The notes under the pieces: model-generated
The model's input: only the letters and a program-made list of their open reading frames with translations
The model's database searches: none
Told to the model about the DNA's origin: nothing
Position numbers and translations under genes: made by a program
DNA from: an uncultured Gammaproteobacteria bacterium
Lineage (GTDB): Bacteria > Patescibacteriota > Patescibacteriia > Patescibacteriales > UBA12465
Direction of reading: 5' to 3'
DNA length: 64,000 nucleotides
Assembly (NCBI GenBank): GCA_964431235.1
Contig: CAYSJA010000030.1
Span: 1,774-65,773, forward strand
Shown here: piece by piece, positions 12,276 to 60,594 of the stretch
Position numbering within the stretch: the stretch's first letter is position 1
Layout: the number at the start of each line of letters is the position of its first letter

Positions 12276-14744
12276 TTATTTTGTTATTTGCGTCCGCCTA
12301 GTAATTTCAGCTTCCACTAGTCTGACACTTCGACCATATTTCAAACGAGAAAGAGAACGGATACGATCAGCTATCTCTTCCCTCTTTACTCCCATAAGAG
12401 GCCAAATGGTTCGTAAAGAGAAAGGGCGAGCAGCAGTATTATCTATTAAAAGTTTAATATAAGCAGTCCCTTTGTCAATGTTTATAAGATCATATTCATT
12501 AAAAACCGGACTAAATTCTTTTACTAGAAATTCAGCGTCTTCTGAACCGACTTTGAAATTTATAATTGTGCCAATATTACCAAAAACAGCGTCTTTTATT
12601 TCTGTATTATTATTTTTAACAAGCTGACCAATATACTGATGGGCAACAACCAGATTTAGAGCGTATTTTCTAGCTTCAGACAGTATCTGGCAAATGGAAT
12701 TGGTGGTGAAATTCTGAAATTCATCAATATAAAGATAAAAATCTTTCCTTTTTTTTGCCGGCAAATCAGTACGGGATAAAGCACCCATTAAAATTTTTCC
12801 TACTAAGATCATCCCTAAAAGATAAGCATTCATTTCCCCAACTGTTCCCTTGGGCAAATCAACCAATAAAATTTTCTGCTTATCCATAATTTCACGCAGA
12901 TTAAAAGCACTTTTTTGCTGCCCTATTATCGGCCGCATCATATCATTAGAAATAAAGGAAGTTAATTTAGAGGTAATATAAGGAACAATATTAGCTAAAG
13001 CCGCTTCACCACCAGCTTTTTCCGCTTCTTTAGTCCAAAAATCAACTACTGTTTTATTCTTACACCTTTCTAATTTTAAACGCCGAAAATTGACATCAGC
13101 TAAAACTTTAGGGATTTCCATTAAAGTAGAACCAGAAGCAGGATCCTCCATTACCAATAACATTGCGTTTCTCATATATTGTTCAAACATAGGCCCGCCG
13201 GTTGACTTTAAATCATAAAGTTTATCAAAAATTCCTATCATCTCATTAATAACAAAACTTTTTTGTTCTGGATAGCGCGAATCGTATTCTAATAAATTAA
13301 GCGCTAGCGGTCTTTCTAAATCAGCTGGTGAAAAAATAATTACATCTTCCGATCTTTCCGGCGGAATACGCTCTAAAATATCTTGGATTAAATCACCATG
13401 GGGATCCAAAACGCAAACCCCTTCACCATTTTGAATATCCTGAATTGCCATATTAGCTAAAAGTACAGATTTACCAACACCAGACTTACCAACTACATAG
13501 GTGTGGCGTCTTCTATCATCTCTTTTAATCTTAATTTCTTTTTTAAACCCGCGATAAAAATTATACCCTAAAATAATTCCCTCTTCCGGAGTTTCAGCTG
13601 GAGCCGGAGCTGATTTGGCTGTTAGCCATAAAATATTAGGAGTTTCCACACTTCGCAAAGGTAAATGGAAAATACTGGCTAATTCTTCGCTATTTAAAAG
13701 AAAACTATTCTTTTCCCGAAAATGGCGATAAATAAAATCTTTTATAATCTTATCTTGATTCTTTTTCTTAGCTCTGGAGAAAGAATTACCATAAGAAAAA
13801 TTATTATATTCAGAAAAAGCGCTGGCAATATTTTCTAAATGTCTATCGGCTTTTTCTTTGCTTTGAGAAAAACTAAGCACCCGTAAATTAACATCAAGAC
13901 CAGCTTTTAAATTTTTTTCTTCTATTTTTTTAAGCATCTCTTCTTCAATCGCGCTAAGGCGCCTTTCTGGCTTTGACTCTAAATTTTGACCTTTATTTTT
14001 TGTAGGTGGATTTATAAAAGAAAAGGCTTTATCTAAAATATTTGATTTCAAACCCTCAGAAACAGAATTCTTTTGCTGTATCTGAAACACTTTTTTTCTC
14101 ACTGCTCCATGCCAAGAACTCCTAGCACTGCGTACTAAATATTGTAAGGACAAACTCTCTCCTTTTTCCAATTTAGATAAAACATTGATTAAAGAATTCA
14201 TGGGATCGACTTCCATTTCTTGATAAGTTTTTAAAGGAAAAATAAAACTTTTACTAGTTTTTAAATAAGCGGCTGACACTTGACCCTGAACACCAAAAGA
14301 ATTATAGTCTTCTATTTCCTCAATTGAAGCGGCTGGATACTGAGCATGAATTTGTTGCTCTAAATAACGAAAACTTTCAGAAGCGCAAGCAAAATAAAAA
14401 ACAATTTTTTTAGAATCAGCCACTATTTCAAAAGAAACATGATCTTGACGTCCCAGCAACCAAGCTTTGAAACCGTGTTGAGCTTTTAATCCACCAATAG
14501 CCGCAAATATGGCTTCGCCTTTGGCTATTTCTTCTCTTAGCTCTTGGACAGAATTATTATTATTTTTATCTTCAGGTTTTTCTTTAGGAATACGGACAGA
14601 AAAGACATGGTGATTGAAATAACGGCGTCTAGAAAAAACTATCCTAAACAAACGTAAAATTATAAAAATAGCTATCACTACCGCTAAAACGGCAAACAAA
14701 TAAAGCCAAATAGTATTAAAATCTGTTATCTCAAAAGTCAACAT
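12276..14744 (-). CDS. membrane-anchored type IV coupling protein-like ATPase (VirD4/TraG/TraD family, or DUF87/HerA-like)
   Basis: N-terminal TM helix; Walker A VVGKSGVGKS; VLDPHGDL resembles the coupling-protein DPKGE motif; Walker B LYIDEFQNF; VVAHQ sensor motif. Confidence 0.6.
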   Translation of the reverse strand: MLTFEITDFNTIWLYLFAVLAVVIAIFIILRLFRIVFSRRRYFNHHVFSVRIPKEKPEDKNNNNSVQELREEIAKGEAIFAAIGGLKAQHGFKAWLLGRQDHVSFEIVADSKKIVFYFACASESFRYLEQQIHAQYPAASIEEIEDYNSFGVQGQVSAAYLKTSKSFIFPLKTYQEMEVDPMNSLINVLSKLEKGESLSLQYLVRSARSSWHGAVRKKVFQIQQKNSVSEGLKSNILDKAFSFINPPTKNKGQNLESKPERRLSAIEEEMLKKIEEKNLKAGLDVNLRVLSFSQSKEKADRHLENIASAFSEYNNFSYGNSFSRAKKKNQDKIIKDFIYRHFREKNSFLLNSEELASIFHLPLRSVETPNILWLTAKSAPAPAETPEEGIILGYNFYRGFKKEIKIKRDDRRRHTYVVGKSGVGKSVLLANMAIQDIQNGEGVCVLDPHGDLIQDILERIPPERSEDVIIFSPADLERPLALNLLEYDSRYPEQKSFVINEMIGIFDKLYDLKSTGGPMFEQYMRNAMLLVMEDPASGSTLMEIPKVLADVNFRRLKLERCKNKTVVDFWTKEAEKAGGEAALANIVPYITSKLTSFISNDMMRPIIGQQKSAFNLREIMDKQKILLVDLPKGTVGEMNAYLLGMILVGKILMGALSRTDLPAKKRKDFYLYIDEFQNFTTNSICQILSEARKYALNLVVAHQYIGQLVKNNNTEIKDAVFGNIGTIINFKVGSEDAEFLVKEFSPVFNEYDLINIDKGTAYIKLLIDNTAARPFSLRTIWPLMGVKREEIADRIRSLSRLKYGRSVRLVEAEITRRTQITK

Positions 14745-44519: not shown

Positions 44520-46496
44520 TTATTCCACTCGTCCGGAATTATTTAAAGCGGCAATATCATCATCTTCCAATTTAGTAGTCTTGGGCCCTGATTTAGCGCT
44601 TATTTCCTGTTTAGTTTCGGTATCAATAGCACTGGAAGAAGCTCCAGGTGATAAGACTAAAATTTTATCCCGATCAGATTCTTGTGGCGTCAAAGAAATA
44701 GAAAAAGAAGCTTCTGTCTGATATACTGAAGCTGGTAAACGCCCTATGCTCCAAATAACTTCCCTTTTATCTTGATCAAAATATAAATCACCAACACTAA
44801 CCGAATCATAATTTAACCAAGAGATATTTTTAGGTAAAGCCAGCTTTACTTCAGTTTGCTTAAGCTCATGTAAATTATTTTTTAAACGCCAATATACTCT
44901 AAAAGAGGTAGCTTCGTTAACGCGAGGAGGCAAGGGACCCGAGCCAACGGGTAAATTATTCTCATCAAAATATTTAATTTCTTCTATAATAGATAAATTA
45001 CTATTTAAAGGGCTAGTTATTACATTACTTTTATTTTCGCTATCCGCTCCTTCACTATCACCACCATATTGAGAATAAACGGAAATTTCCATATCTTTCA
45101 AGGAATAATCATTATTATAATCTTTTAGCTTTACGGAAAAATTTATCTCTCCTTCTTCTCCTGGTTTTATCTCGGCCAAAGCAGGAATATCTTGTTTATT
45201 CCAAATTATTTGCCCGGATCTAATTTCACCGGGAACACTAGTTTCAATGCTAGCTAAATCAAACATAAAACCATCTAAAACTGCAGTAATAACAGCATCT
45301 TTAAACGAACTTTCACCTTTATTGCTATAATTCAAGGTATAATTTAAAATTTCGCCAAAATTAACGGCCTGATTATTCTTAGAACCGTTTAAAAATAAGG
45401 CTATATTTAAATCACTCTTCACCGCTTCTATTGATAAAATTTTTTCTAAAAAAGTATAGGATTGGCCATCAGGTAAACGCTGTTTAAGACTAAGAGATAA
45501 ATCAGAAGATAAGGGCTCTTTTTTAGCTAAATAATTAAAAACTAAACTTCGATCAGTTAAATCAGATAAGCTGACCAACCAGCTATTCGGCCCCTCCTTA
45601 ATTGGGGACTCATCATTATCTTTTGCATTATCATCAACAGCTAAATTTATCTCCACTTCTTGGGGGGGGTCAAATTCAATAATAAAATCTGATAAATAAT
45701 TGTCTGAAAAAAAAGAAGAAAAAGAAAGATTTATTTCACTATTTTGACCAACGAAAACAAGATTTGAATAGTCAACATCCATTTCAAGGCCTAATCCATT
45801 TATCACCGTAGCAGCTGAGCTTTCCTTTTTAAACTGGCTGGAAAAATTTAAAGGAGTATAATGCAAGTTACCGGAAATAATATTAACTGACTCCAAAGGG
45901 GCAATAATTTCTCCAGTAACCAAAACATGGGCTTCAGAACCCGCCGGTATATTAGGCAAATTAAAACCGTTGTTTAAAAAATCAGCTTGAGGCTCGGAAA
46001 AAGAAAAGATAAAATTCTCTGGATAGTTGAGTTCTAATCTAACTTTGCTAATAGTGAATTTAGTAGGATTTTTAATAATTATTTTATAAGAGAATTCTTC
46101 ACCAACTAGAACCTCTTCTAAAGCTTCAATCTTAAATTCAACCGCTCCCATGTCACTATCGCCAGTAAAATAATAAATATAAGCAAAAGAAGCGGCTAAA
46201 AATAGAATAACAAAAATAAGCATCCTCTTAAAAATTCTTACTATTAATTTATTTCTTTTTTTTATATTCATTTTTTTTACATCAACAAGACCTCCCTTTT
46301 TATCACGATAAATTTCATTTAAATTAGAATCTATTTCCTGGTGCTTGATTTCTTTATCCAGCACTTCTTCAAAATCAGTTACTTCATTGTCGGACGGGAC
46401 TGGCCGCTTCACAAAAGCTGACAAGCCTGACAATTTATGATTTTTAATTTCCAAATTTTTTTTTGTTTTCTTATTTTGTTTTTTATCTTGTTTCAT
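44520..46496 (-). CDS. hypothetical surface protein, type II membrane topology, extracellular beta-rich repeats (DUF11-like)
   Basis: Lys-rich cytoplasmic N-terminus, one TM helix, ~550 aa Asn/Ser-rich ectodomain; contains a C8 homopolymer in the coding strand. Confidence 0.5.
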   Translation of the reverse strand: MKQDKKQNKKTKKNLEIKNHKLSGLSAFVKRPVPSDNEVTDFEEVLDKEIKHQEIDSNLNEIYRDKKGGLVDVKKMNIKKRNKLIVRIFKRMLIFVILFLAASFAYIYYFTGDSDMGAVEFKIEALEEVLVGEEFSYKIIIKNPTKFTISKVRLELNYPENFIFSFSEPQADFLNNGFNLPNIPAGSEAHVLVTGEIIAPLESVNIISGNLHYTPLNFSSQFKKESSAATVINGLGLEMDVDYSNLVFVGQNSEINLSFSSFFSDNYLSDFIIEFDPPQEVEINLAVDDNAKDNDESPIKEGPNSWLVSLSDLTDRSLVFNYLAKKEPLSSDLSLSLKQRLPDGQSYTFLEKILSIEAVKSDLNIALFLNGSKNNQAVNFGEILNYTLNYSNKGESSFKDAVITAVLDGFMFDLASIETSVPGEIRSGQIIWNKQDIPALAEIKPGEEGEINFSVKLKDYNNDYSLKDMEISVYSQYGGDSEGADSENKSNVITSPLNSNLSIIEEIKYFDENNLPVGSGPLPPRVNEATSFRVYWRLKNNLHELKQTEVKLALPKNISWLNYDSVSVGDLYFDQDKREVIWSIGRLPASVYQTEASFSISLTPQESDRDKILVLSPGASSSAIDTETKQEISAKSGPKTTKLEDDDIAALNNSGRVE

Positions 46497-49005
46497 ATTT
46501 GTTTTTTAAAAGAATAGAAAAATATTTATCCATATCCACGCTGCTTTCAATCAGCCACCCGTTCTGCCAAAAAAGATTATCAGGATGTTTCCAAATAATT
46601 TCCAAATTATCAGGTAAAATTAAACGGCTGATAAAAGAACTCGGTGCTGCCCCTGGCTGCTTTTGCAATAATAAAGAATAAGGAATAAAATTTTCAAAAT
46701 CAGGATTAATAAGTTTATTTAAGCGTTGCCAAAAATTGTTATTTCCCTTCTCTTGATCACTAAAAAAATTAAAAGGTAATTCATAGCTGATACTAATATC
46801 TGCTATCTCTCCCGGGTCAATCATCACCCAACCGGCAAAAACCGTCTTACCGTGCTCTTGGTATATTTTAATCCCACTGATTGGATCTTCTTTTGCTAAC
46901 CTTTCTTCTTGTAAAAATTTACTTTCCAGCCAATCATCCTCTGGCTCCTCAAAATAAGAAGAATCGGGAGCGCTGAAACCGGAAGCAGAAATAAGACGGC
47001 TCCCTAAAGGTACATATACTCTAAGCCAGTTAACATTACGTACTCCGGTTAAAGCTTCATTTTTTATACCCAAATGAGTACGCTCTATTTTTATATTATT
47101 TATTATTTTTCCTGTATTATCAATTTGGGATAAATGTTCTATGTTTTCTGTTATTTTACGATCTGTCTTTTGACCGGCAATATTAGTATTCACCACTAAT
47201 AGGTAATCATGTGTTGAAGGTTTTACCTCTCCAGCCAGATTTTTTTTAACCATCTCTTGTTGTAGCTTAGAATCAGAAAAATAAAACATAATTTGCTTTT
47301 GTGCTAAACTACTTTCAAATAATTTGATAATTTTTACTAAGTTATCTTTATCCAATCTCTGTGGTAAAATTTCTAAAATTCTAACCATTAAATCGCCTAC
47401 TATTTTTTTAGGTTTATTTTCCGGATTATTTTCTAAATCTTGATATAAAGGAACATCAGATTCTATAATTCCTTTCATCTCTTTAAAATCAATTGTTTCC
47501 TCGGGATGAGTCATAATTAAATTATCATGCTCTACAATTTTTTGAACTGTTTCCCAAAAATTATTACTATCTATCACTAGGCCGTATTCCTGGTCCATAT
47601 CTATCGGCCCAGTTATCTCCAATAAATTTTCTACTACTGTCGGTGTAAAAGTAATAACACCATCAACCGTAGATCCACCACTTTTTTCATAAAACCACAT
47701 TAAATTTTCGGCGGTTTTAGGCCAATCAGGCCACCAATTAGCATCCCAAAAGTGCCATAGAGGATTAACTAGCCATAAGGGTTCGGGCGCCTTTACTTTA
47801 ACTGTCATGCTGCCTTCGGTGTCATAAGAGCCCCCAGCCGGAACTTCTACATTCCTGATTCTGCCTTCTCTGATATCTATTAAAGCATAACTGCCTAAAA
47901 AGCCTCCAGAAGCTCTTAGCTCAGCATTATTTTGAAAAACTAATAAATAGCGCTTATCTTGGCTTTGTCCTAATATTTCATAAATTTTATCAGACAAAGA
48001 GATAAAACTGTCTAAATTAATATTTAAAAATTTTGTTTTATCCTTTAAATCTGAAAATTTATCTTGATACTCCAACGGCAAATTATTTTTATCTATTTTA
48101 GAAATAGCTTCCTGTAAATCTAAAGCATCTTGCCGGGCTAAATAGCCATAATAAAAAAAATTCTGTAGAGACGACAAAAAATCGCTTTCGGCTTGATAGT
48201 TAAACAAACTATTTGTTGCTAAAACTAAATTTTTTCCTAGAGACGAACTTAGTGTTCCAGCGGCTAGAATATTTTTACTTTCCGAAGCTAATTTTAATTT
48301 AGGATTATTTGATAGAGAAGCTAAAAAAAACAAAGAATCATTAATTGCCGCTAAATCTTCTTCTGCCCGCAAAAATTCTTGGCTCGCCAAAGAAAAATTT
48401 CTATCAGCACTCTGAAAATCAAATTGAGAAACAGAATCAACCGCTAACGCTAGTTGAGAAATAGCGGCCTGGGAACGAAACATAATCTTAGATTCTAAAT
48501 TATCTAAATTTAAAAACTGAAAATATGATAATATTTTCAAAGGTACTACTAAAAATAGGAGTACAAGGGCAAAGAAAAAAACAGATCGATACCAAGTTAA
48601 TTTGTGCTCTACCCTTTTTAAACGGCGCTTGGTTGAAAAAAAACGACTATTTAAAATTCTTCTTTTATCCTTAATCACTTGTTGCCATAAATTATTGCCT
48701 TTTTTCTTCGTTCTATAAAATTTTAAATCTTTAAGCCAAAAATTTATTTTTGTTTTGAAAAAATCAAACGGCAAACTATGAGATAATAAATTAAAATTAA
48801 AGGATTTTTTCTTTCTTTTATTAATTTTATTAAAAAAAGGTGAACGTAATTTACTAATTTTTTTTAAACCAAAAAAACTGTCTGATTTTTTTCTCTTTTC
48901 TACTTCTTCTTTAAGTGGTTTTTGTTGCCGCAAATCAACCACAAAACTAGAGCTTCTAGCTCGTGCTAACTCTTGAGGGCTTATTTTTTTCTGTCTATTA
49001 ATCAT
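46483..49005 (-). CDS. hypothetical large membrane-anchored protein (possibly DUF4012-like)
   Basis: Basic N-terminus, single TM helix around residue 150, ~680 aa Trp-rich ectodomain; no catalytic motif recognised. Confidence 0.45.
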   Translation of the reverse strand: MINRQKKISPQELARARSSSFVVDLRQQKPLKEEVEKRKKSDSFFGLKKISKLRSPFFNKINKRKKKSFNFNLLSHSLPFDFFKTKINFWLKDLKFYRTKKKGNNLWQQVIKDKRRILNSRFFSTKRRLKRVEHKLTWYRSVFFFALVLLFLVVPLKILSYFQFLNLDNLESKIMFRSQAAISQLALAVDSVSQFDFQSADRNFSLASQEFLRAEEDLAAINDSLFFLASLSNNPKLKLASESKNILAAGTLSSSLGKNLVLATNSLFNYQAESDFLSSLQNFFYYGYLARQDALDLQEAISKIDKNNLPLEYQDKFSDLKDKTKFLNINLDSFISLSDKIYEILGQSQDKRYLLVFQNNAELRASGGFLGSYALIDIREGRIRNVEVPAGGSYDTEGSMTVKVKAPEPLWLVNPLWHFWDANWWPDWPKTAENLMWFYEKSGGSTVDGVITFTPTVVENLLEITGPIDMDQEYGLVIDSNNFWETVQKIVEHDNLIMTHPEETIDFKEMKGIIESDVPLYQDLENNPENKPKKIVGDLMVRILEILPQRLDKDNLVKIIKLFESSLAQKQIMFYFSDSKLQQEMVKKNLAGEVKPSTHDYLLVVNTNIAGQKTDRKITENIEHLSQIDNTGKIINNIKIERTHLGIKNEALTGVRNVNWLRVYVPLGSRLISASGFSAPDSSYFEEPEDDWLESKFLQEERLAKEDPISGIKIYQEHGKTVFAGWVMIDPGEIADISISYELPFNFFSDQEKGNNNFWQRLNKLINPDFENFIPYSLLLQKQPGAAPSSFISRLILPDNLEIIWKHPDNLFWQNGWLIESSVDMDKYFSILLKNKYETR

Positions 49006-50221: not shown

Positions 50222-51667
50222 TTAAGTAAAAGGGAGGTTTTCTGGAGGCGAAGCCTTTTTTTGAGGGACATCGTCTGTTATCTTAGAATCGTTTTTTTCC
50301 ACAAAAAAATTCTCGTTATTTTTATTATCATTTTTAAAAAAACTATCGGGAATTGGCGTCAATTCTGAATCTAGAGGTAAAGAAAAAGGGGCATCCGCCT
50401 TTTTACCCTGAGTTTTTTGTATTAAAGACGCCTTAACACTGCCCTCTAAAGGAAAATGCCATAAAGTTGCCAATTCTTCTATATTAAATATGCGAGGCGA
50501 TAAACCTTGACTGTTAGATCTTTTGACATAAGCTTGAAAAATTCTGTTTTTCTTTCTCTGTAAACGTGGTTCCCGCCAAAAATAAGCTGTCCTGGTCATA
50601 GTTTTTTTAACATCGGGTTTTAGATTATTTAAATCTAAAGCGGCAAACTGCTTCATAAAGCCAACAATACCATTAGCGACCTTGGCCTTATTCATAATTT
50701 CTTTTTGGGACACATACACCATTCTTATTTTAGCGGTAAAAGCTAATTTACTGGCTTTAAGACTAATACCTTCTAATTTCTTTTGTTCTGAAGGAGTTAA
50801 ATCTAGCATAGTTTTTATCTTCTCTTCTTTTTCCTTATTTTCAATATCGCCCCAAATGCTATAAATAACTTCACTTAATTCGCCCAACCACTCCATTAGT
50901 TGCATAAAAAACCCTTTTTTAGCTTTTGATTTTCTCTCCAGAATCTTATCAACTTCTTTTTCTACATCTTTAACCCAATCAAAACCAATCGGGGTAACAA
51001 TAAATTGTAGCCATAGCTGCTCGCCTTGACGTAAAGAACCACATAAATCCATTAAACTAGCCATCGGATCCTTAAATTGTGTTTCTTCAGGTCCAATTTG
51101 ATGTTCAAAATCACGATAACACTTAATTGGATACATCCAAGGAGATGCTTGGGTAAACTCTACGCCCCAAATATCATATTCTTCATCCGGATATTTTTGC
51201 GCTACCGTTTCTGTATAGTCGTCAACTTCGGAAATTTCTGCATCAGGGTACTGGGAATAGACAGAAGATTCAATTAAATTCCTATATTCAGCCGGGGTTC
51301 TAATTAAAAATTGGGTATAACCCTCCAAGCTGACAACCTCATAGCTAAAAGATTTCTGAAATTTGCCCTCAAACCATGTTTCAAAAAAATTTTCTGTACC
51401 ATGGGCGCCGGCTAGATAAGTAAACATGTTTTCCACTGCCTTAGGTGTCTGTTCATTACCCTTGGGGATATCAATCGCTAAAAGTATATTTTTATGGGTA
51501 GCCGCCCATTTATTCCTTAACCAATAAAGATAGACTTGGAGCACTCCCCAAATAAAAAAGATCCCGATTATCAACCAACCAAAATTACCAATAAAGGACC
51601 AAAACATCTCATCAGGTGGCAAACTAAAAAATTTTTCTATACCGGCAGTATTTATAACTATATCCAT
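50222..51667 (-). CDS. hypothetical membrane protein
   Basis: Two N-terminal TM helices then a ~400 aa domain with no recognised motifs. Confidence 0.4.
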   Translation of the reverse strand: MDIVINTAGIEKFFSLPPDEMFWSFIGNFGWLIIGIFFIWGVLQVYLYWLRNKWAATHKNILLAIDIPKGNEQTPKAVENMFTYLAGAHGTENFFETWFEGKFQKSFSYEVVSLEGYTQFLIRTPAEYRNLIESSVYSQYPDAEISEVDDYTETVAQKYPDEEYDIWGVEFTQASPWMYPIKCYRDFEHQIGPEETQFKDPMASLMDLCGSLRQGEQLWLQFIVTPIGFDWVKDVEKEVDKILERKSKAKKGFFMQLMEWLGELSEVIYSIWGDIENKEKEEKIKTMLDLTPSEQKKLEGISLKASKLAFTAKIRMVYVSQKEIMNKAKVANGIVGFMKQFAALDLNNLKPDVKKTMTRTAYFWREPRLQRKKNRIFQAYVKRSNSQGLSPRIFNIEELATLWHFPLEGSVKASLIQKTQGKKADAPFSLPLDSELTPIPDSFFKNDNKNNENFFVEKNDSKITDDVPQKKASPPENLPFT

Positions 51668-51773
51668 AATTTAAAGGCTATCTTTAATAAAATTTTATCA
51701 TATATTAATAAAAAAAGAAATCCGCCCAACTAAATGGGTGGATCACTTAAATAGTCTTATTTTTAAAATATTA

Positions 51774-52811
51774 TTATTGATTTTGCCACTCCTTTAAACC
51801 ATAAGTTCCGCGGCTAACTAATACATAACGACTATCAAGAATAAGTTCATTGTGAACAGTGGCAGCATTAGCCCTCTTTTTATCAAAATTGACTTCATTT
51901 ATTTTATCAGCAATAGTGGTAAAATGCAGAGGTCTACCTTCGTGCTTTAACACTAAGAATATCTTATCATTAACTGTTTTAGGTTTTATTTCCTGCCAAT
52001 TTGCTATTCCCCATTCGCCGTATTTATTACGCTCTAAATTTTTTACCGCTTGCATTAAAGAATATAAAATTTTATTTTGATTTATAGTTTCCGCTTTATC
52101 TGGGAAAACTTGGCTTTTAAAAATAGCTTCAATATCAAAACTATCTGATTGAAATTTCTCTTGATAACGAGAATAAGATTCCAATTCTTTTAACACCTCT
52201 ATTAACTCTTCAGTCTTCAAGGTTTTCTTTAAACCATCTACTCGGCTAACAAGACTATCAGCTAATTCTTCAAGATTAGATATTTCTTTATCTTTTAATT
52301 TAAAAGAAGGGGTAAATTTATCACTTTTTTTTATAAACTCCAAATCATCAGCCATTAGTTTAGAAAGTAAGAAATTAAAATGATTTTTATAAGTTTGACG
52401 CAATTTTTCATCGATTAAATCTATATTTTTATCAGACTTCATTTCTAAAGCAATAACGGTTAGAATATCCAATAAATAATCACGTCTAATCAAACCTCCG
52501 TGTTCTTCCATTAATTTATAAACTGCCTGTTTAAAATTGCTTATATAATTTTCTAAATTCTCTAATTTTTTAATCTTCCTGATACTAGCTGCCTCAATTT
52601 GTCTAACTCGTTCTCTGGTTAATTTATGCAAACTACCTATTTTTTCCAAAGTTTCACTTTTATCTCCCTTTAAGCCGAAACGTCTGGTTAAAATATCGCG
52701 CTCCCTATCCATTAATTGGGAAAAAAGATTACTAACAATACTAATAGCATCTAAACGACCCACTTCCTCATTCTTCTGTTCTTTAATAATTTTTTCTAAA
52801 ATATTTTCCAT
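51774..52811 (-). CDS. DNA-binding protein with N-terminal sigma-70 region 4 HTH and C-terminal HARE-HTH-like domain
   Basis: Residues ~35-85, ERDILTRRFGL...TLEKIGSLHKLTRERVRQIEAASIRKI, look like sigma region 4. The C-terminus, FTTIADKINE...ATVHNELILDSRYVLVSRGTYGLKEW, resembles the HARE-HTH of RpoE-delta/ASXL-type domains ending in WGL..W. Confidence 0.5.
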   Translation of the reverse strand: MENILEKIIKEQKNEEVGRLDAISIVSNLFSQLMDRERDILTRRFGLKGDKSETLEKIGSLHKLTRERVRQIEAASIRKIKKLENLENYISNFKQAVYKLMEEHGGLIRRDYLLDILTVIALEMKSDKNIDLIDEKLRQTYKNHFNFLLSKLMADDLEFIKKSDKFTPSFKLKDKEISNLEELADSLVSRVDGLKKTLKTEELIEVLKELESYSRYQEKFQSDSFDIEAIFKSQVFPDKAETINQNKILYSLMQAVKNLERNKYGEWGIANWQEIKPKTVNDKIFLVLKHEGRPLHFTTIADKINEVNFDKKRANAATVHNELILDSRYVLVSRGTYGLKEWQNQ

Positions 52812-52914
52812 ATATAAAAATAAAGTAATAGCAACTTTAATTCTTAATTAATTATTGTTTATTGTCTATCAAAACTTTATTTATTTTATCACATTATTTT
52901 ATATTAGTCAATAG

Positions 52915-55534: not shown

Positions 55535-56827
55535 TTAATTCTTTAACCAAATTTCTTCTTGGCGCACTAATAATTCTTTAGCCTTCTCCGGCTCAGCCAT
55601 CAACTCTTTAACAATTTTTTCCATCCTAGCTCCCTGTGATCCCTTTATTAACAAAACATCACCTTCTTTCAAACGATGCTGCAAAAAACGACCGGCAGCT
55701 TCCGGATAATCAAAATAAAAAATATTTTTATCTTCCATGCCTTTTTCTTTAGCGCCTCTAATAAAATCCCTGGCTCTTTCTCCTACCGCTATCAGAAAAT
55801 CTATTCCAGCTTCATGGATTTTTCTTCCTACTGAACGATGGCCTTCAACTGTATAAGCGCCAATTTCCAACATATCACCCATGACAACATATTTGCAAGC
55901 ATCTTTGTCTATATTAATTTTTCCTAAAATATCAACGGCTGAAATCGCGGCCTCTGGTGAAGAATTATAGGTATCATCAATAATAAAAGAATGCTTTATC
56001 CCCGGTAATATATTCATTCTGCCCGGAGGCAAAGAAAAATCGCTTAAAGAAGCGGCTATTTCCACTAAATTTATATTCAATTCAATAGCAACAGCAGCCG
56101 CTGTCAAAGCAGCATAAATAGCTGGCTCTGACATCGTATTTTTCATAAATACTGGTACTACTGCTCCTTGATAGTTAAGCTTAAAATTAATTCCAGTTAA
56201 CTCATATCTTTCTCGGGTAAAATTATAAATAATATTCTGGGCTTTCAAGACAGCTGTTGTTTCCTTTATTCCATAGCTTATTATTTTAGCTCTACTAAAA
56301 GATGACATATCCTTAATAGGAGTATTATCATAATTTAATACTGCTAAGCCGGACCCGGGCAAGCTTTCCACTAAGCGTTGTTTTTCCTTTTTAATATTAC
56401 CTAGACTGCCGAAGTATTCTAGATGGGAATAGCTAATTGCAGTTACGACGCCTATGTCAGGACGAACAATTGAAATTAGATAATTCATATCTTTAGGCCT
56501 ATCAACACCCATTTCTAAAATTAATATTTGTGGGTAATTTTTATCTTTAAAAACAAGAAGTTTCAAAGCAATAAAAAATACTTTCAACCAGCCTAAATAA
56601 AATCGTCCAGGTGACTGACAACCAATAATGGTAAGAGGTAAACCAATTTCATTATTATAATTCTTGAAGCTGGTCCTTGTGCTAAATTTTCTCCTTAAAA
56701 TATGGGAGATCGCCTCCTTAGAACTAGTTTTTCCAATTGAGCCAGTAATGCCTATTACCTTGGGTTTATATTTTTTCAAAATCAATCTGGCTAAAATTTT
56801 CAATTTTAATCGCAATAATTTGCGCAT
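55535..56827 (-). CDS. murF: Mur ligase (MurF-like UDP-MurNAc-tripeptide--D-Ala-D-Ala ligase; MurE not excluded)
   Basis: ATP-binding VIGITGSIGKTSSKE; immediately downstream of ftsI in dcw order. Confidence 0.6.
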   Translation of the reverse strand: MRKLLRLKLKILARLILKKYKPKVIGITGSIGKTSSKEAISHILRRKFSTRTSFKNYNNEIGLPLTIIGCQSPGRFYLGWLKVFFIALKLLVFKDKNYPQILILEMGVDRPKDMNYLISIVRPDIGVVTAISYSHLEYFGSLGNIKKEKQRLVESLPGSGLAVLNYDNTPIKDMSSFSRAKIISYGIKETTAVLKAQNIIYNFTRERYELTGINFKLNYQGAVVPVFMKNTMSEPAIYAALTAAAVAIELNINLVEIAASLSDFSLPPGRMNILPGIKHSFIIDDTYNSSPEAAISAVDILGKINIDKDACKYVVMGDMLEIGAYTVEGHRSVGRKIHEAGIDFLIAVGERARDFIRGAKEKGMEDKNIFYFDYPEAAGRFLQHRLKEGDVLLIKGSQGARMEKIVKELMAEPEKAKELLVRQEEIWLKN

Positions 56828-56847
56828 ATTTTTTAAACTGTTAAAAC

Positions 56848-58806
56848 CTACCTATCCTTTGGAACGGCATAATAATTTAAAATAAATTCCGCTATATCCC
56901 GCCATAAAGGAACTACTGAACCTTCAGCATACTGTACGCCTTTTGGCTTGTCAATTTTAACCAGCATTACAAAAACTGGATTTTCAATCGGAGCAATTCC
57001 AATAAAAGTATGAGAGTATTCGCTTTGGCTATAACCACCGGCAGTTGCTATTTGAGCAGTTCCGGTTTTACCTCCAATATAATATCCAGATATAGCCGCT
57101 TTTTGTGAATGTCCCTTTTCTACAACATTAACCAGCATAGCAGAAACTGTAGCCGCTGTTTTTTCAGATATTATCTGATTTATGGCCTTAGGAGAAATAT
57201 CTTCTCGCCTACCGTCAGAATAAACAATACTTTTTACCACATAAGGTTTCATTAAAAGACCTTTATTAGCAATTGCCTGGTACGGCATCAACATCTGTAA
57301 GGGTGTAACTGCTATTCCCTGGCCGAAAGAAGCAGTGGCAGCATCTATTTCCTTAACTTTATTACTTAACAAATTATTTATATTCCCTGGACTCTCAGCG
57401 CCAAGTTCAATGCCGGTTCTTTCCCCAAAACCAAAATTTTTAACATATTCAGCAAAAATTTTAGGTCCGACTTGATTCATGGCAAAAATAGCACCAGTGT
57501 TTAAAGAATTATCAAGAACTGCGCTCATATCAACCACACCATGGGGTCCATGACTAAAAAAGTCAGAATTCCTTATTGGTTTAGGCCAACCGCTTATCAT
57601 AATCTGCCCCTTATCTTCATAAGTCGTAGCCGGGGAAATTTTTTCCTGATCAATCGCTATTGCCATGGTAACAGTTTTAAAGACTGAGCCCGGCTCATAT
57701 TGATAAAAAATCGCCGGATTGTTATAAAAAGACATATTTTCTACATCTTTATAATTATTAGGATTAAAATCAGGAAAAGAACACATGGCAATAATCGCTC
57801 CGGTTTTCGGATTCATAACTATAATTGACCCGCCTTCAGCTTTATAGTAATCCGCTACTTGTTTAAGCTTATCGCAAACAATAAATTCAATATTTCTATC
57901 TACTGTTAAAATCAAGTCATTTCCTGGCTGGGGCTGAACATATTCCCTGTCGTTTATAATCATTAAATTTGATTTATTAGCTTTATCTGACTTCAAAAAT
58001 CCATATTGTCCGAAAAGTTCAGTATTGAAAAATCCTTCTAAACCATATTGGCCCTGGATTTCACCGTCAATTTGGCTGCTAAAACCAACTAAATGGGCGG
58101 CTATTTCCTGCTCGGGATAAAAACGATAATTCTGCAAATTAAATCCTAAACCATCTACTATAAACTCTGTATCTGGGTCATCTCTATAAATTATCTTACC
58201 GAATTTTATATTAAGTTCTTCGGGATTAGCTAAAGGAGCGGAGGATGTTGAATTATAATCAGAACTGGATAAAAAAGAGTAAAATCTGATTAAATCATCA
58301 AGTGGCATCTTTTGAATTAAGGGTTCATAAGGATCCCCTGGTTTGTCCAACTTTTTTAAATAACTGGAAATTATTTCCTCTTTAGTAGAAGTGGCGATGA
58401 CAAAATCTGTATCTGTCGCTGTTTCTTCTTTAAACTCTTTTTCTAATTTCGGCTTATCAAAAAAAATAAACATTTTTTCTGCCATTACTTCCGGATTAAT
58501 AATATCTTTGGGCACAACAAAAACTTCAGCAAATTCCTTATTAGTAGCTAAAGGATATAATTTTTCTTCCCCATCAACTTCTTCGCTGAAATAAATCTTG
58601 CCCCTTTCTGGGATCAACTGGTTATAAAATTGATGCTGGGAAGAAGCTATAGCTGTATAGAAATCGCATTGACTTATCTGGATATTATATAATTTATAAA
58701 CTAAAGATCCGATTAATAAAAAAATAATCGCCACAACAAGACGCCAGCGATTATTGTTCACCTTTCCTTCTTTAGATCTTTTTTTAATCTGAGGTTCTCG
58801 CCACAT
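56848..58806 (-). CDS. ftsI: penicillin-binding protein 2 / FtsI transpeptidase
   Basis: N-terminal TM helix; SxxK as SVFK; KTG as GGKTGTAQ. Confidence 0.85.
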   Translation of the reverse strand: MWREPQIKKRSKEGKVNNNRWRLVVAIIFLLIGSLVYKLYNIQISQCDFYTAIASSQHQFYNQLIPERGKIYFSEEVDGEEKLYPLATNKEFAEVFVVPKDIINPEVMAEKMFIFFDKPKLEKEFKEETATDTDFVIATSTKEEIISSYLKKLDKPGDPYEPLIQKMPLDDLIRFYSFLSSSDYNSTSSAPLANPEELNIKFGKIIYRDDPDTEFIVDGLGFNLQNYRFYPEQEIAAHLVGFSSQIDGEIQGQYGLEGFFNTELFGQYGFLKSDKANKSNLMIINDREYVQPQPGNDLILTVDRNIEFIVCDKLKQVADYYKAEGGSIIVMNPKTGAIIAMCSFPDFNPNNYKDVENMSFYNNPAIFYQYEPGSVFKTVTMAIAIDQEKISPATTYEDKGQIMISGWPKPIRNSDFFSHGPHGVVDMSAVLDNSLNTGAIFAMNQVGPKIFAEYVKNFGFGERTGIELGAESPGNINNLLSNKVKEIDAATASFGQGIAVTPLQMLMPYQAIANKGLLMKPYVVKSIVYSDGRREDISPKAINQIISEKTAATVSAMLVNVVEKGHSQKAAISGYYIGGKTGTAQIATAGGYSQSEYSHTFIGIAPIENPVFVMLVKIDKPKGVQYAEGSVVPLWRDIAEFILNYYAVPKDR

Positions 58807-58827
58807 AAAATAAATAAGAAAAGGTTT

Positions 58828-59169
58828 TTATTTTTTAGCAACGAATTGACTGCTAGCTTTGATATACTCAATATCTTCAATTGCAACCATATTCAGAGTT
58901 TTAGCTCTTTCGCTTAAGATATAAAAAGACTGCAAAGAATTTACTTGTTGTTCATAAAATTCCTGTCTCTCTCCTAGGCTGTCAGCCTCTGCTCTTAATT
59001 CTTGTAAAATAAAACTCTTGGCCGTCAAATCACTGATGCTAATAAGATAAAAGAAGGTAAAAACAGTAATCGTTAAAAATAATCCAAGGTTTAAAATTTT
59101 TATATTGAGGGCGTACCGAGAATTTTCTTTAGCAGCGCGTCCACAATAATAACTGGACATTTTAATCAT
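58828..59169 (-). CDS. FtsL-like cell division protein
   Basis: One TM helix and a coiled coil; sits between rsmH and ftsI. Confidence 0.5.
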   Translation of the reverse strand: MIKMSSYYCGRAAKENSRYALNIKILNLGLFLTITVFTFFYLISISDLTAKSFILQELRAEADSLGERQEFYEQQVNSLQSFYILSERAKTLNMVAIEDIEYIKASSQFVAKK

Positions 59170-59220
59170 AAGCGAAATGTTTTTATATTAATTTAAAAAT
59201 TATCTAACATTTAGGGGCCT

Positions 59221-60114
59221 TCAAATCTTTATCTTTATCGCCGCTCGTAGTTTGGCACTCCTTGATCTAGGATTTAATTCTTGTTCTTTCTGCCCGGGAA
59301 TAAGTGGCTTTTTAATAATGGGTATTAAATCTTCTTCTCCTTTAAAAAATCTTTTTACTATCCGATCCTCGCCACTATGGAAAGATACTACTACTAAACG
59401 TCCTTTATAGCGAAGTAGATCTTTGGCATCAGGTAAAGCTATCTTTAAATTTTCAAATTCCTGATTAGTTTCTATCCTTAAAGCTTGAAATACTTTGGTA
59501 GCCGGATGAATCTTATAATAAAAACGGGGGGGATATTGGCTCTTAATGATATCTGCTAATTCTTTAGCATTATCTATTTTTTTTTGCTTCCGAAAAGAAA
59601 CAATCGCCTTGGCGATTCTGTAGGCATGCTTTTCTTCTCCGAATTCCCTGAATATCACAGCTAATTCCTCAATTTTATAATTGTTAACAATAGAAATGGT
59701 TGATCTTTCCGCTTGTTGACCAAAAGCCATATCAAGAGGGCCTCCATGTTGGAAAGAAAACCCTCGTCCAGTATCTTTCAATTGAAAAGATGACAACCCT
59801 AAATCAAATACTATACCGTCAAATAATTCTTGATCCCCGATATATTCTCTGGCAACCTTTTTTATATTTTTAAAATTTTCTTGAACTAATGTTATATTAC
59901 TCAGTCCGGCTTTAACGATTTTCTTAGTCGCGTTCTTTATTGCCGTTTCATCCATATCCATAGCCAGCACTCTTCCCTTATTTCCCGCTTTTTTTGCTAT
60001 TTCTAAAGTATAGCCAGCACCTCCTAATGTACAATCAATATATTTTCCTCCCGGCTTTACAGTTAAGTATTTTATTACCTCCGGTAGCATTACCGGAATA
60101 TGATCACCTGCCAT
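59221..60114 (-). CDS. rsmH: 16S rRNA (cytosine1402-N4)-methyltransferase RsmH/MraW
   Basis: HIPVMLPEV; SAM-binding DCTLGGAGY. Confidence 0.9.
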   Translation of the reverse strand: MAGDHIPVMLPEVIKYLTVKPGGKYIDCTLGGAGYTLEIAKKAGNKGRVLAMDMDETAIKNATKKIVKAGLSNITLVQENFKNIKKVAREYIGDQELFDGIVFDLGLSSFQLKDTGRGFSFQHGGPLDMAFGQQAERSTISIVNNYKIEELAVIFREFGEEKHAYRIAKAIVSFRKQKKIDNAKELADIIKSQYPPRFYYKIHPATKVFQALRIETNQEFENLKIALPDAKDLLRYKGRLVVVSFHSGEDRIVKRFFKGEEDLIPIIKKPLIPGQKEQELNPRSRSAKLRAAIKIKI

Positions 60115-60117
60115 ATA

Positions 60118-60594
60118 CTAAATACCCAAGTCTCCCAAAGCTTCGGCGATTGAATTGCTGTTCTTTTCAGAATCAGCCTTATATTTCCTCCAAGATATTT
60201 GATCCCAAATCTCCAAATGATTATATAAGCCGGCTACTACTACTTTTTTTTTCAATCCGGAAAAAGAACGCAAATATTCCGGTAAAGTTATCCGTCCCTG
60301 ATTATCAAATTCGACATCCATAGCTCCAGCCAACATATGACGCGCAAAAGCCCTGGCCTTAGCCTGACTAAGTGGCAAAGCAGCAAATTTTTTTGCCATC
60401 TCTTTAAATTGTTCTTTAGAATATAAAAAAAGACAGTTATCCAAACCTTTGGTTACAACCGCCCCTTTCTTTAAAATGACACGGAACTTAGCTGGTATAG
60501 CCAAGCGCCCTTTATTATCTAAACTATGATTGTATTCGCCGATAAACATAGATTTAGCAAATAAATTTTTATTCCATCGTCCACTATTCCCCAC
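60118..60594 (-). CDS. mraZ: transcriptional regulator MraZ
   Basis: MFIGEYNHSLDNKGRLAIPAKFR; duplicated SpoVT/AbrB-like halves. Confidence 0.9.
   Translation of the reverse strand: MGNSGRWNKNLFAKSMFIGEYNHSLDNKGRLAIPAKFRVILKKGAVVTKGLDNCLFLYSKEQFKEMAKKFAALPLSQAKARAFARHMLAGAMDVEFDNQGRITLPEYLRSFSGLKKKVVVAGLYNHLEIWDQISWRKYKADSEKNSNSIAEALGDLGI

Follow-up and report, generated by a model that had tools for sequence, protein, structure and literature searches.

A Patescibacteria-wide protein family joining sigma region 4 to HARE-type winged helices, and its candidate role with the basal transcription machinery

Patescibacteria, or the Candidate Phyla Radiation (CPR), account for much of bacterial diversity; their genomes are tiny and carry few recognisable regulators. 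Recent reviews say that their regulation is essentially unknown (PMC11665869). We examined a 64,000-nucleotide stretch of contig CAYSJA010000030.1 (assembly GCA_964431235.1, positions 1,774 to 65,773 of the forward strand), here called the window, and within it one gene whose product begins with a sigma-70 region 4 helix-turn-helix (HTH) and ends in a HARE-HTH winged helix; we refer to it as the sigma4/HARE gene. The G+C content of the window is about 32%, and its minus strand carries nearly all of the genes. The sigma4/HARE gene is an intact open reading frame (ORF) of 345 amino acids (aa) that runs from ATG to stop over the exact span 51774 to 52811, and two JGI metagenome contigs encode a protein identical to its product. 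The gene and its domains are listed below, with the basis for each in brackets.

51774-52811, minus strand: coding sequence, 345 aa, with a sigma region-4 HTH, two winged-helix-like middle domains and a HARE-HTH winged helix (ORF, Pfam, AlphaFold2)
52566-52724, minus strand: sigma-70 region 4 of primary-sigma type, residues 30-82 (PF04545, PDB, Foldseek)
52593-52619, minus strand: recognition helix T65-R-E-R-V-R-Q-I-E73, the equivalent of E. coli sigma70 T583-E591 (alignment to sigma70)
52002-52556, minus strand: folded middle, residues 86-270, with two helix-plus-strand, winged-helix-like domains that are acidic family-wide (AlphaFold2, charge, Foldseek, ECOD parse)
51786-51977, minus strand: HARE-HTH winged helix, residues 279-342, a basic relative of the N-terminal domain found in the delta subunit of RNA polymerase (RNAP) (PF05066, TIGR04567, hhalign)

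The original prediction, made from the sequence alone, had placed a sigma-70 region 4 at the N-terminus and a HARE-HTH domain at the C-terminus of a protein lacking sigma regions 2 and 3. Sigma70_r4 (PF04545) scored 41.9 bits over residues 30-82, above its gathering score of 24.1 (E 7e-11), and the family profile matched region 4 of sigmaA, RpoD and RpoS in the PDB at E values of 5e-12 to 1e-8. HARE-HTH (PF05066) matched residues 279-342 with 30.6 bits against a gathering score of 25.9 (E 4e-7); a score above the gathering threshold and a winged-helix fold in the AlphaFold2 model place this domain in the HARE-HTH superfamily. Sigma70_r2, Sigma70_r3 and GerE gave no Pfam match in the protein even at E<=10. 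The NCBIfam models for RpoD, RpoS and MzaA matched through their region-4 ends alone (residues ~11-90) and far under their cutoffs. The best matches of the HTH in NCBIfam and the PDB were all RpoD, RpoS or SigA, and together with the missing GerE match this rules out a LuxR/GerE-type regulator. A bona fide sigma factor is ruled out as well, since a protein without regions 2 and 3 fails the definition. No similarity to anti-sigma factors of the Rsd or AsiA type was found in Pfam, NCBIfam, PDB or Foldseek. With profile matches to both terminal domains and no GerE classification, the headline observation of the original prediction is confirmed.

An AlphaFold2 model of the window protein, built on an 84-sequence alignment of diverse relatives, was compact (mean predicted local distance difference test score, pLDDT, 92.6; predicted template modelling score, pTM, 0.88). 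In Foldseek, sigmaA region 4 and residues 20-85 of the model superpose at 1.0-2.0 Å. The approximately 200 middle residues had been taken for a helical linker with coiled-coil character; the model rules this out, showing mixed helix/strand, winged-helix-like domains. The first consists of helices at residues 86-103, 110-125 and 135-152 and strands at 107-109, 157-160 and 169-172, and the second of a helical element at 178-255 and strands at 259-261 and 267-269. The HARE domain has helices at 280-291, 297-307 and 316-325 followed by a beta-hairpin (topology at residues 280-339). A long-form relative (P0122, 410 aa) gave an equally good and compact model (pLDDT 94.3, pTM 0.88), in which a canonical winged helix is present as a fourth. 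Median charges over the family were +4 each for the sigma4, HARE and extra winged-helix domains, and -4 and -3 for the two middle domains.

The recognition helix corresponds to T583-E591 of E. coli sigma70, the helix that reads the -35 hexamer. The roles of the sigma70 residues in -35 contact are those reportedly seen by Campbell and colleagues (2002) in the structure of Taq sigmaA region 4 with -35 DNA. Conservation was counted over 84 diverse family members, which are about 30-60% identical, in E. coli sigma70 numbering. The equivalents of R586, Q589 and L573 were kept in 84/84 members, those of R584, E585 and R588 in 83/84, and those of T583 and R562 in 82/84. Conservation over the whole sequence was highest in the sigma4 and HARE domains and lowest in the middle. 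Within the window, TRER[VI]RQI is coded at a single site, in the sigma4/HARE gene.

The HARE domain is related to that of delta. The delta model TIGR04567 matched all 84 diverse members at E<=0.001 (best E 1.5e-14); in the window protein it covered residues 282-343 with 30.8 bits, under its cutoff of 42. The family HARE domain aligned to the N-terminal domain of B. subtilis delta with an hhalign E value of 4.4e-5, the delta sequence having been validated against PDB delta chains. The position of the HARE domain, its charge, the missing acidic tail and the sub-cutoff score together rule out that the protein is itself a delta subunit.

The family is large, with thousands of full-length homologues. 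More than 1,300 close clusters were found, the best 120 of which are all about 345 aa long and 67-79% identical to the window protein. Among 1.84 billion representatives at 50% identity, 235 clusters matched at E<=1e-30, nearly all full-length at 340-410 aa; full-length matches across the 50%-identity clusters had E values of 1e-131 to 1e-35. A second search, from a distant locus labelled "Saccharibacteria", returned at least 8,000 candidates at E<=1e-10, including relatives named Nomurabacteria or Paceibacterota; the entry of Southlakia, the organism discussed below, was not among the matches listed. Across the 84 diverse members, Pfam found Sigma70_r4 in 84 and HARE-HTH in 82.

All relatives that carry an organism name are Patescibacteria (Falkowbacteria, Parcubacteria, Uhrbacteria, Nomurabacteria, Paceibacterota and "Patescibacteria group"), and no named non-CPR member occurred among the homologue-search matches. 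We also scanned one genome per GTDB species with the pattern TRER[VI]RQI, which matches every RpoD too; this sample yielded at least 13 full-length loci. The full-length matches listed came from Falkow-, Parcu-, Doudna-, Sacchari-, Kaiser- and Peregrinibacteria and from Paceibacterota, and the remaining matches listed are region 4 of ordinary sigma factors. The phylogenetic distribution of the fusion, which the original prediction had proposed to check, is therefore that of a Patescibacteria-wide family and not of one glycan locus. One locus (L015, recorded as 'uncultured Candidatus Saccharibacteria') encodes a sigma4/HARE protein whose nearest named relatives are Nomurabacteria and Paceibacterota, so the taxonomic label of that binned metagenome-assembled genome looks unreliable. 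A separate protein of 589 aa (P0201) has the odd architecture of Sigma70_r4 repeated seven times in tandem (Pfam 190 bits over 7 stretches).

The window protein is a short variant of this family. Past the HARE domain, 81 of the 84 diverse members carry 58-93 further residues that the window protein and its ~345-aa relatives do not have. This extra C-terminal module of about 60 aa is conserved and basic, and its hhalign match to the HARE region (probability 81%, E 1.3e-5) marks it as a second, divergent winged helix of HARE-like type; its profile found nothing significant among PDB sequences, and the last domain of a few family members matches the TFIIE_beta or TBPIP winged-helix models. The window protein ends 3 residues past HARE, where the long forms go on into the second basic winged helix, and no remnant of it was found in the spacer 3' of the gene. 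These two observations indicate a lineage-specific truncated variant and not a frameshift. The family is one of 345-410 aa in which sigma4 is followed by a rigid array of winged helices, three in the window lineage and four in most others, with HARE-HTH domains as the last one or two.

This architecture had been thought not to belong to a described family. It is already catalogued: NCBI automatically names the family "sigma factor-like HTH DNA-binding protein", single members bear stray database labels (delta subunit, Lrp regulator, hypothetical, RpoS), and one probable member, SEML1_0294, appears in a supplementary table (Wang et al., Cell 2023, PMC10633639, Table S1). Its presence in these sources limits the surprise; the arrangement itself is without characterised precedent. 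We found no paper that discusses the family, no discussion of it in Méheust et al. 2019, and no paper that pairs "sigma factor-like" with Patescibacteria.

SEML1_0294 of Ca. Southlakia epibionticum ML1 supplies genetic evidence (Wang et al. 2023, PMC10633639, Tables S1/S2). The protein of 349 aa, annotated 'RpoS' by PROKKA, has Sigma70_r4 at residues 27-72 and HARE-HTH at 225-283, was parsed by ECOD into a tri-helical domain plus three winged domains, with residues 216-285 placed on 7f75 chain L, which is delta, and was flagged as a core, Patescibacteria-enriched family. In transposon sequencing (Tn-seq), the gene was called essential (ES) at each of the three passages, where 1, 1 and 2 insertions were recovered against 24 in the input DNA. 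The true RpoD, SEML1_0063, was separately essential, and the neighbour SEML1_0293, whose family was likewise flagged core and Patescibacteria-enriched, was non-essential. SEML1_0294 appears in Table S1 of that study and is never discussed or characterised there. Its domain coordinates agree with those of Saccharibacteria-labelled members of our family, and it is probably the Southlakia orthologue of the window gene. It shares with the family the Pfam architecture, the parse into sigma4 plus three winged helices and the kind of downstream neighbour, a DUF8128-like N-terminus joined to a TrwB ATPase; in contrast to the window protein, SEML1_0294 is a long form with the fourth domain present and a shorter middle, and the organism in which it proved essential is a Saccharibacterium, not a member of the window lineage.

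A natural fusion to a sigma factor was also seen. One protein of 800 aa (P0228) joins an RpoD-like sigma, with regions 2, 3 and 4, to a complete sigma4/HARE module and is the only member with regions 2 and 3. It is encoded identically in three independent metagenome samples of GC ~0.53 (L085, 8001-10403; L086, 4214-6616; L087, 1551-3953), next to parB, pnp and rpsO. The sigma4 of its module reads TRQRIQQI, the sole exception in the family, with two -35 contact residues lost. DUF8128 and TrwB genes are absent within 8 kb of it.

In the window, the sigma4/HARE gene is flanked by RmlD, RmlA and GT2 upstream and by GT4 and DUF4012 downstream. The original prediction had suggested that it could control this glycan cluster. 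The surroundings are real in the window lineage and its close relatives: at 67-79% identity a kept order runs from MraZ, RsmH, FtsL-like, penicillin-binding protein (PBP) and Mur ligase through RmlD, RmlA and GT2 to the sigma4/HARE gene, DUF8128, GT4, DUF4012, a large surface protein and TGT. Control of the cluster is not supported. In 13 loci from distant CPR lineages, where homologue identity is 28-36%, glycan-locus genes are adjacent to the sigma4/HARE gene in none, and what those loci keep is DUF8128. The glycan link is lineage-specific. In the window itself, a division and cell-wall (dcw) block (MraZ, RsmH, FtsL-like, PBP/FtsI-like, Mur ligase) at 55535-60594 on the minus strand lies directly upstream of RmlD/RmlA/GT2 and is conserved in relatives at 67-72% identity, so the local glycan locus continues a cell-envelope gene cluster. 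Two proteins encoded on the minus strand downstream of GT4 are probably envelope or surface proteins: the DUF4012 protein (840 aa, 46483-49005) and a DUF11/CLIPPER-like protein (658 aa, 44520-46496). From 2.8 kb onward the minus strand holds almost all genes, and the GC skew stays negative over the whole window, which is consistent with a single replichore. Neither tRNA genes nor Rfam families at the gathering threshold were found in the 64-kb window, and rpoB and rpoC are absent from it.

Further features of the window that bear on the gene are the following.

50222-51667, minus strand: DUF8128 gene, 481 aa, with an N-terminal membrane segment (PF26449, synteny)
12276-14744, minus strand: 822-aa paralogue with a DUF8128-like N-terminus and a TrwB/VirD4/TraD-like ATPase (tblastn, BLASTP, Pfam)
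52883-52911, minus strand: promoter-like site of the sigma4/HARE gene, TTGACT, 17-nt spacer and TG-extended TAAAAT (consensus scan)
51710-51741, minus strand: terminator-like hairpin (51741-51722) and U-run directly past the stop codon (RNA fold minimum free energy -20.4 kcal/mol, z -2.71)
51692-51702, minus strand: extended -10-like element TATGATAAAAT ahead of the DUF8128 gene, without a -35 hexamer (sequence inspection across loci)

DUF8128 is the only constant neighbour. In 12 of the 13 distant loci a homologue follows immediately downstream in the same orientation, and it is the sole neighbour conserved across seven CPR lineages; among the exceptions, one contig ends early and one locus has DUF8128 6 kb away. 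Other recurrent neighbours in the distant loci are housekeeping genes (SecD/SecF, LeuRS or BipA upstream; YceG and MnmA downstream). In the window, 106 bp separate the sigma4/HARE gene from DUF8128. Two distant loci have a hydrophobic ORF of about 72 aa between the two genes (L007, 3988-4206; L016, 11126-11347), which may represent a transmembrane part that has separated from DUF8128.

A TrwB/VirD4/TraD-like ATPase of about 600 aa follows DUF8128 in six distant loci, and the two are fused in one distant locus (L012, 821 aa), in SEML1_0293 (921 aa) and in the 822-aa gene of the window. The first ~390 residues of the latter align to DUF8128 (BLASTP, 23% identity, E 3e-19), and the gene also matches TrwB_AAD_bind, T4SS-DNA_transf, DUF87 and TraG-D_C in Pfam. 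Its surroundings are of housekeeping type, with dnaX, serS and pyrG as flanking genes, and contain no type IV secretion system (T4SS) genes. The source genome thus holds a stand-alone and a fused copy of the DUF8128 module; the copy beside the sigma4/HARE gene has no ATPase, and the ATPase-bearing paralogue is 37 kb off. DUF8128 is the N-terminal, membrane-anchored part of this orphan VirD4-like ATPase. An orphan of this kind without T4SS genes fits a report on 5,713 VirD4 homologues in CPR genomes, most of which lie away from virB4 and may have been exapted (PMC12102498). No paper on DUF8128/PF26449 was found.

Promoter-like and terminator-like signals were compared across loci, and all promoter calls are at the level of consensus evidence. 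In the window, TTGACT lies at 52911-52906 and TGTGATAAAAT at 52893-52883. A TTGACA/TTGACT-17-(TG)TATAAT-like site occurs upstream of the homologue in nearly all of 14 loci. In the 150 bp upstream of the homologue in the window and in L003-L017, CPR promoters look fully canonical, with TTGACA/T, a 17-nt spacer and an often TG-extended TATAAT, so the hexamer predicted as the sigma4 target does exist in these genomes. A scan of the window for promoters and terminators gave no excess over shuffles, and the window hairpin was missed by a simple terminator scan; a clearer hairpin and T-run stand at the same place in L003, L004, L011 and L013-L016. At most loci, a hairpin with T-run and an extended -10 element without a -35 hexamer separate the sigma4/HARE gene from DUF8128, and neither an operator-like motif nor a TTGACA-like site was found between the two genes across the loci inspected. 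The hairpin and the separate promoters suggest that the two genes, although adjacent, are probably not one transcription unit.

A link of the family to the transcription machinery, which the original prediction had raised as an RNAP-associated factor, is plausible from the kept -35 contacts, the delta-related HARE domain and the RpoD-like fusion. Of that earlier interpretation as a whole, the domain identities stand and the transcription link is credible; the undescribed family, the glycan control and the coiled coil are not supported. We propose that the protein may be a general, essential, phylum-wide, promoter-associated multi-HTH DNA-binding factor that works with the basal transcription machinery, and we put the probability of this at roughly 45%. 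The sigma4 module would read -35-type, TTGACA-like hexamers as sigmaA region 4 does. The basic HARE winged helix, with the second HARE-like one where present, would make a second contact, to adjacent DNA or to RNAP, and the two acidic middle domains would serve as a fixed spacer between them. Such a factor would act genome-wide, with or on the basal machinery, and not locally on glycan genes. The basic charge of the HTH modules beside an acidic middle, the compact models, the presence of TTGACA-type promoters in these genomes and the gene's own promoter-like and terminator-like signals also speak for this reading. The family is phylum-wide, conserved like housekeeping genes and assembled from two modules that belong to the RNAP machinery in other bacteria, and the one Tn-seq dataset available for CPR bacteria calls its probable orthologue essential. 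If the proposal is right, SEML1_0294 would be a genetically tractable entry into CPR transcription initiation.

Several observations weigh against this proposal. The equivalent of sigma70 K593 is not conserved across the 84 members. Docking of the delta type is made less likely by the charge of the HARE domain, +3 in the window protein against -10 for the delta N-terminal domain, and by the sub-cutoff score of the window protein with the delta model, and the family HARE profile found no delta chain among PDB sequences. Loss of the fourth winged helix in the window lineage means that this domain is dispensable at least there. The sigma fusion comes from a single lineage. The orthology of SEML1_0294 is based on architecture, coordinates and neighbour type, not on alignment, and its essentiality could also arise from repression of something toxic. 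Finally, a purely general role does not account for the adjacency to DUF8128, which is deep and phylum-wide.

This adjacency is the starting point of the main rival explanation, in which the protein is a dedicated partner of the DUF8128/VirD4-like ATPase, which resembles type IV coupling proteins: a DNA adaptor that loads or orients this HerA/FtsK-superfamily motor, or its essential repressor. DUF8128 stays directly downstream in the distant loci as the other flanks vary, the DUF8128 and ATPase modules occur both fused and split yet adjacent, both families are core and Patescibacteria-enriched (PMC10633639), and exaptation has been suggested for most CPR VirD4 homologues (PMC12102498). In Southlakia, however, SEML1_0294 is essential and SEML1_0293 is not. 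Most loci separate them by a hairpin and an extended -10 promoter without a TTGACA-like site, the window neighbour lacks the ATPase altogether, and the sigma-fused lineage has neither DUF8128 nor TrwB nearby. We therefore consider this explanation rather unlikely, although it would, if correct, provide the first handle on thousands of "orphan" CPR coupling-protein homologues.

More ambitious than a promoter-associated factor would be a new, essential general initiation factor or an extra subunit of Patescibacteria RNAP, a sigma4/delta hybrid with a TFIIE/RPC62-like array that co-reads the -35 element alongside sigmaA. We regard this as unlikely. Were it true, CPR promoter recognition would use two region-4 modules, which to our knowledge is not known in any other bacteria.

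The identity of the recognition helix with that of sigmaA also allows for an antagonist or decoy, a free sigma4 that would compete with sigmaA by taking up its place on -35 elements or at the beta-flap tip; lacking region 2, the protein cannot melt promoters or bind core like a sigma. This gives a more concrete form to the anti-sigma-like factor of the original prediction. A pure competitor is improbable as a phylum-wide essential gene, and a natural cis fusion to a complete sigma argues for cooperation and not antagonism, which makes the decoy quite improbable. Still further down we place RNA binding through tandem winged helices, like those of the SelB C-terminal domain, and a true alternative sigma as the automated RpoS label of SEML1_0294 implies (PMC10633639 Table S1): the long form weakly matches a SelB C-terminal fragment of four winged helices in Foldseek (E 2e-3, rmsd 14-17 Å; rmsd, root-mean-square deviation), but that likeness is at the level of topology and the conserved residues are the DNA-contacting ones, and a true sigma would have regions 2 and 3. 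Both are very improbable. Local regulation of RmlD, RmlA, GT2, GT4 and DUF4012, the flanking genes for glycans and the cell envelope, is barely credible, since the gene sits among them in the window lineage and its close relatives but in no distant locus, in a family that is phylum-wide and has an essential probable orthologue.

For annotation, these results mean that the labels sigma factor, delta subunit and glycan-locus regulator should all be avoided for this gene. Comparison with known systems makes the differences clear. Region 4 of the primary sigma-70 factors (RpoD, SigA, RpoS) has the same fold (rmsd 1-2 Å), the same helix TRER[VI]RQIE and the same -35 contacts. In those sigmas, however, region 4 ends the protein, whereas in the family it is N-terminal and is followed by winged helices; without regions 1.2, 2 and 3 the family has no -10 or core-binding module. 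The RNAP delta subunit (RpoE) of Bacilli and Mollicutes contributes the closest curated relative of the C-terminal domain, a HARE-type winged helix with the signature D.R[FY]...G.[YW]GL..W in common. Its HARE domain is N-terminal and acidic and leads into a long polyanionic tail; that of the family is C-terminal and basic and has no acidic tail.

Chains of three or four winged helices are also found in the SelB C-terminal domain, Pol III RPC62 and UFL1/DDRGK1, which are the non-sigma fold matches of the long form; the whole chain of the window protein weakly matches tandem winged-helix arrays as well. These matches (Foldseek E 2e-3 to 2e-2, rmsd 13-23 Å) are weak and express a likeness of topology alone, which does not support common descent or function. 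Aravind and Iyer (Cell Cycle, 2012) reportedly described bacterial proteins in which a HARE-HTH domain goes together with features of sigma and of the RNAP alpha subunit, so that a HARE-HTH joined to a sigma-like HTH would have been on record by 2012. The alpha C-terminal domain is ruled out for our family, as PF03118 (RNA_pol_A_CTD) matches 0/84 members, and the CPR distribution, DUF8128 synteny and essentiality of the family post-date that paper.

Lineage-specific RNAP-associated factors are known elsewhere: RbpA and CarD in Actinobacteria, both essential, and delta in Bacilli. The family has no sequence or fold relationship to RbpA or CarD, and its binding to RNAP is a prediction. The analogy lies in the kind of factor: like RbpA and CarD, the family as proposed here would be a lineage-restricted, essential protein with a DNA-binding module that is not a sigma.

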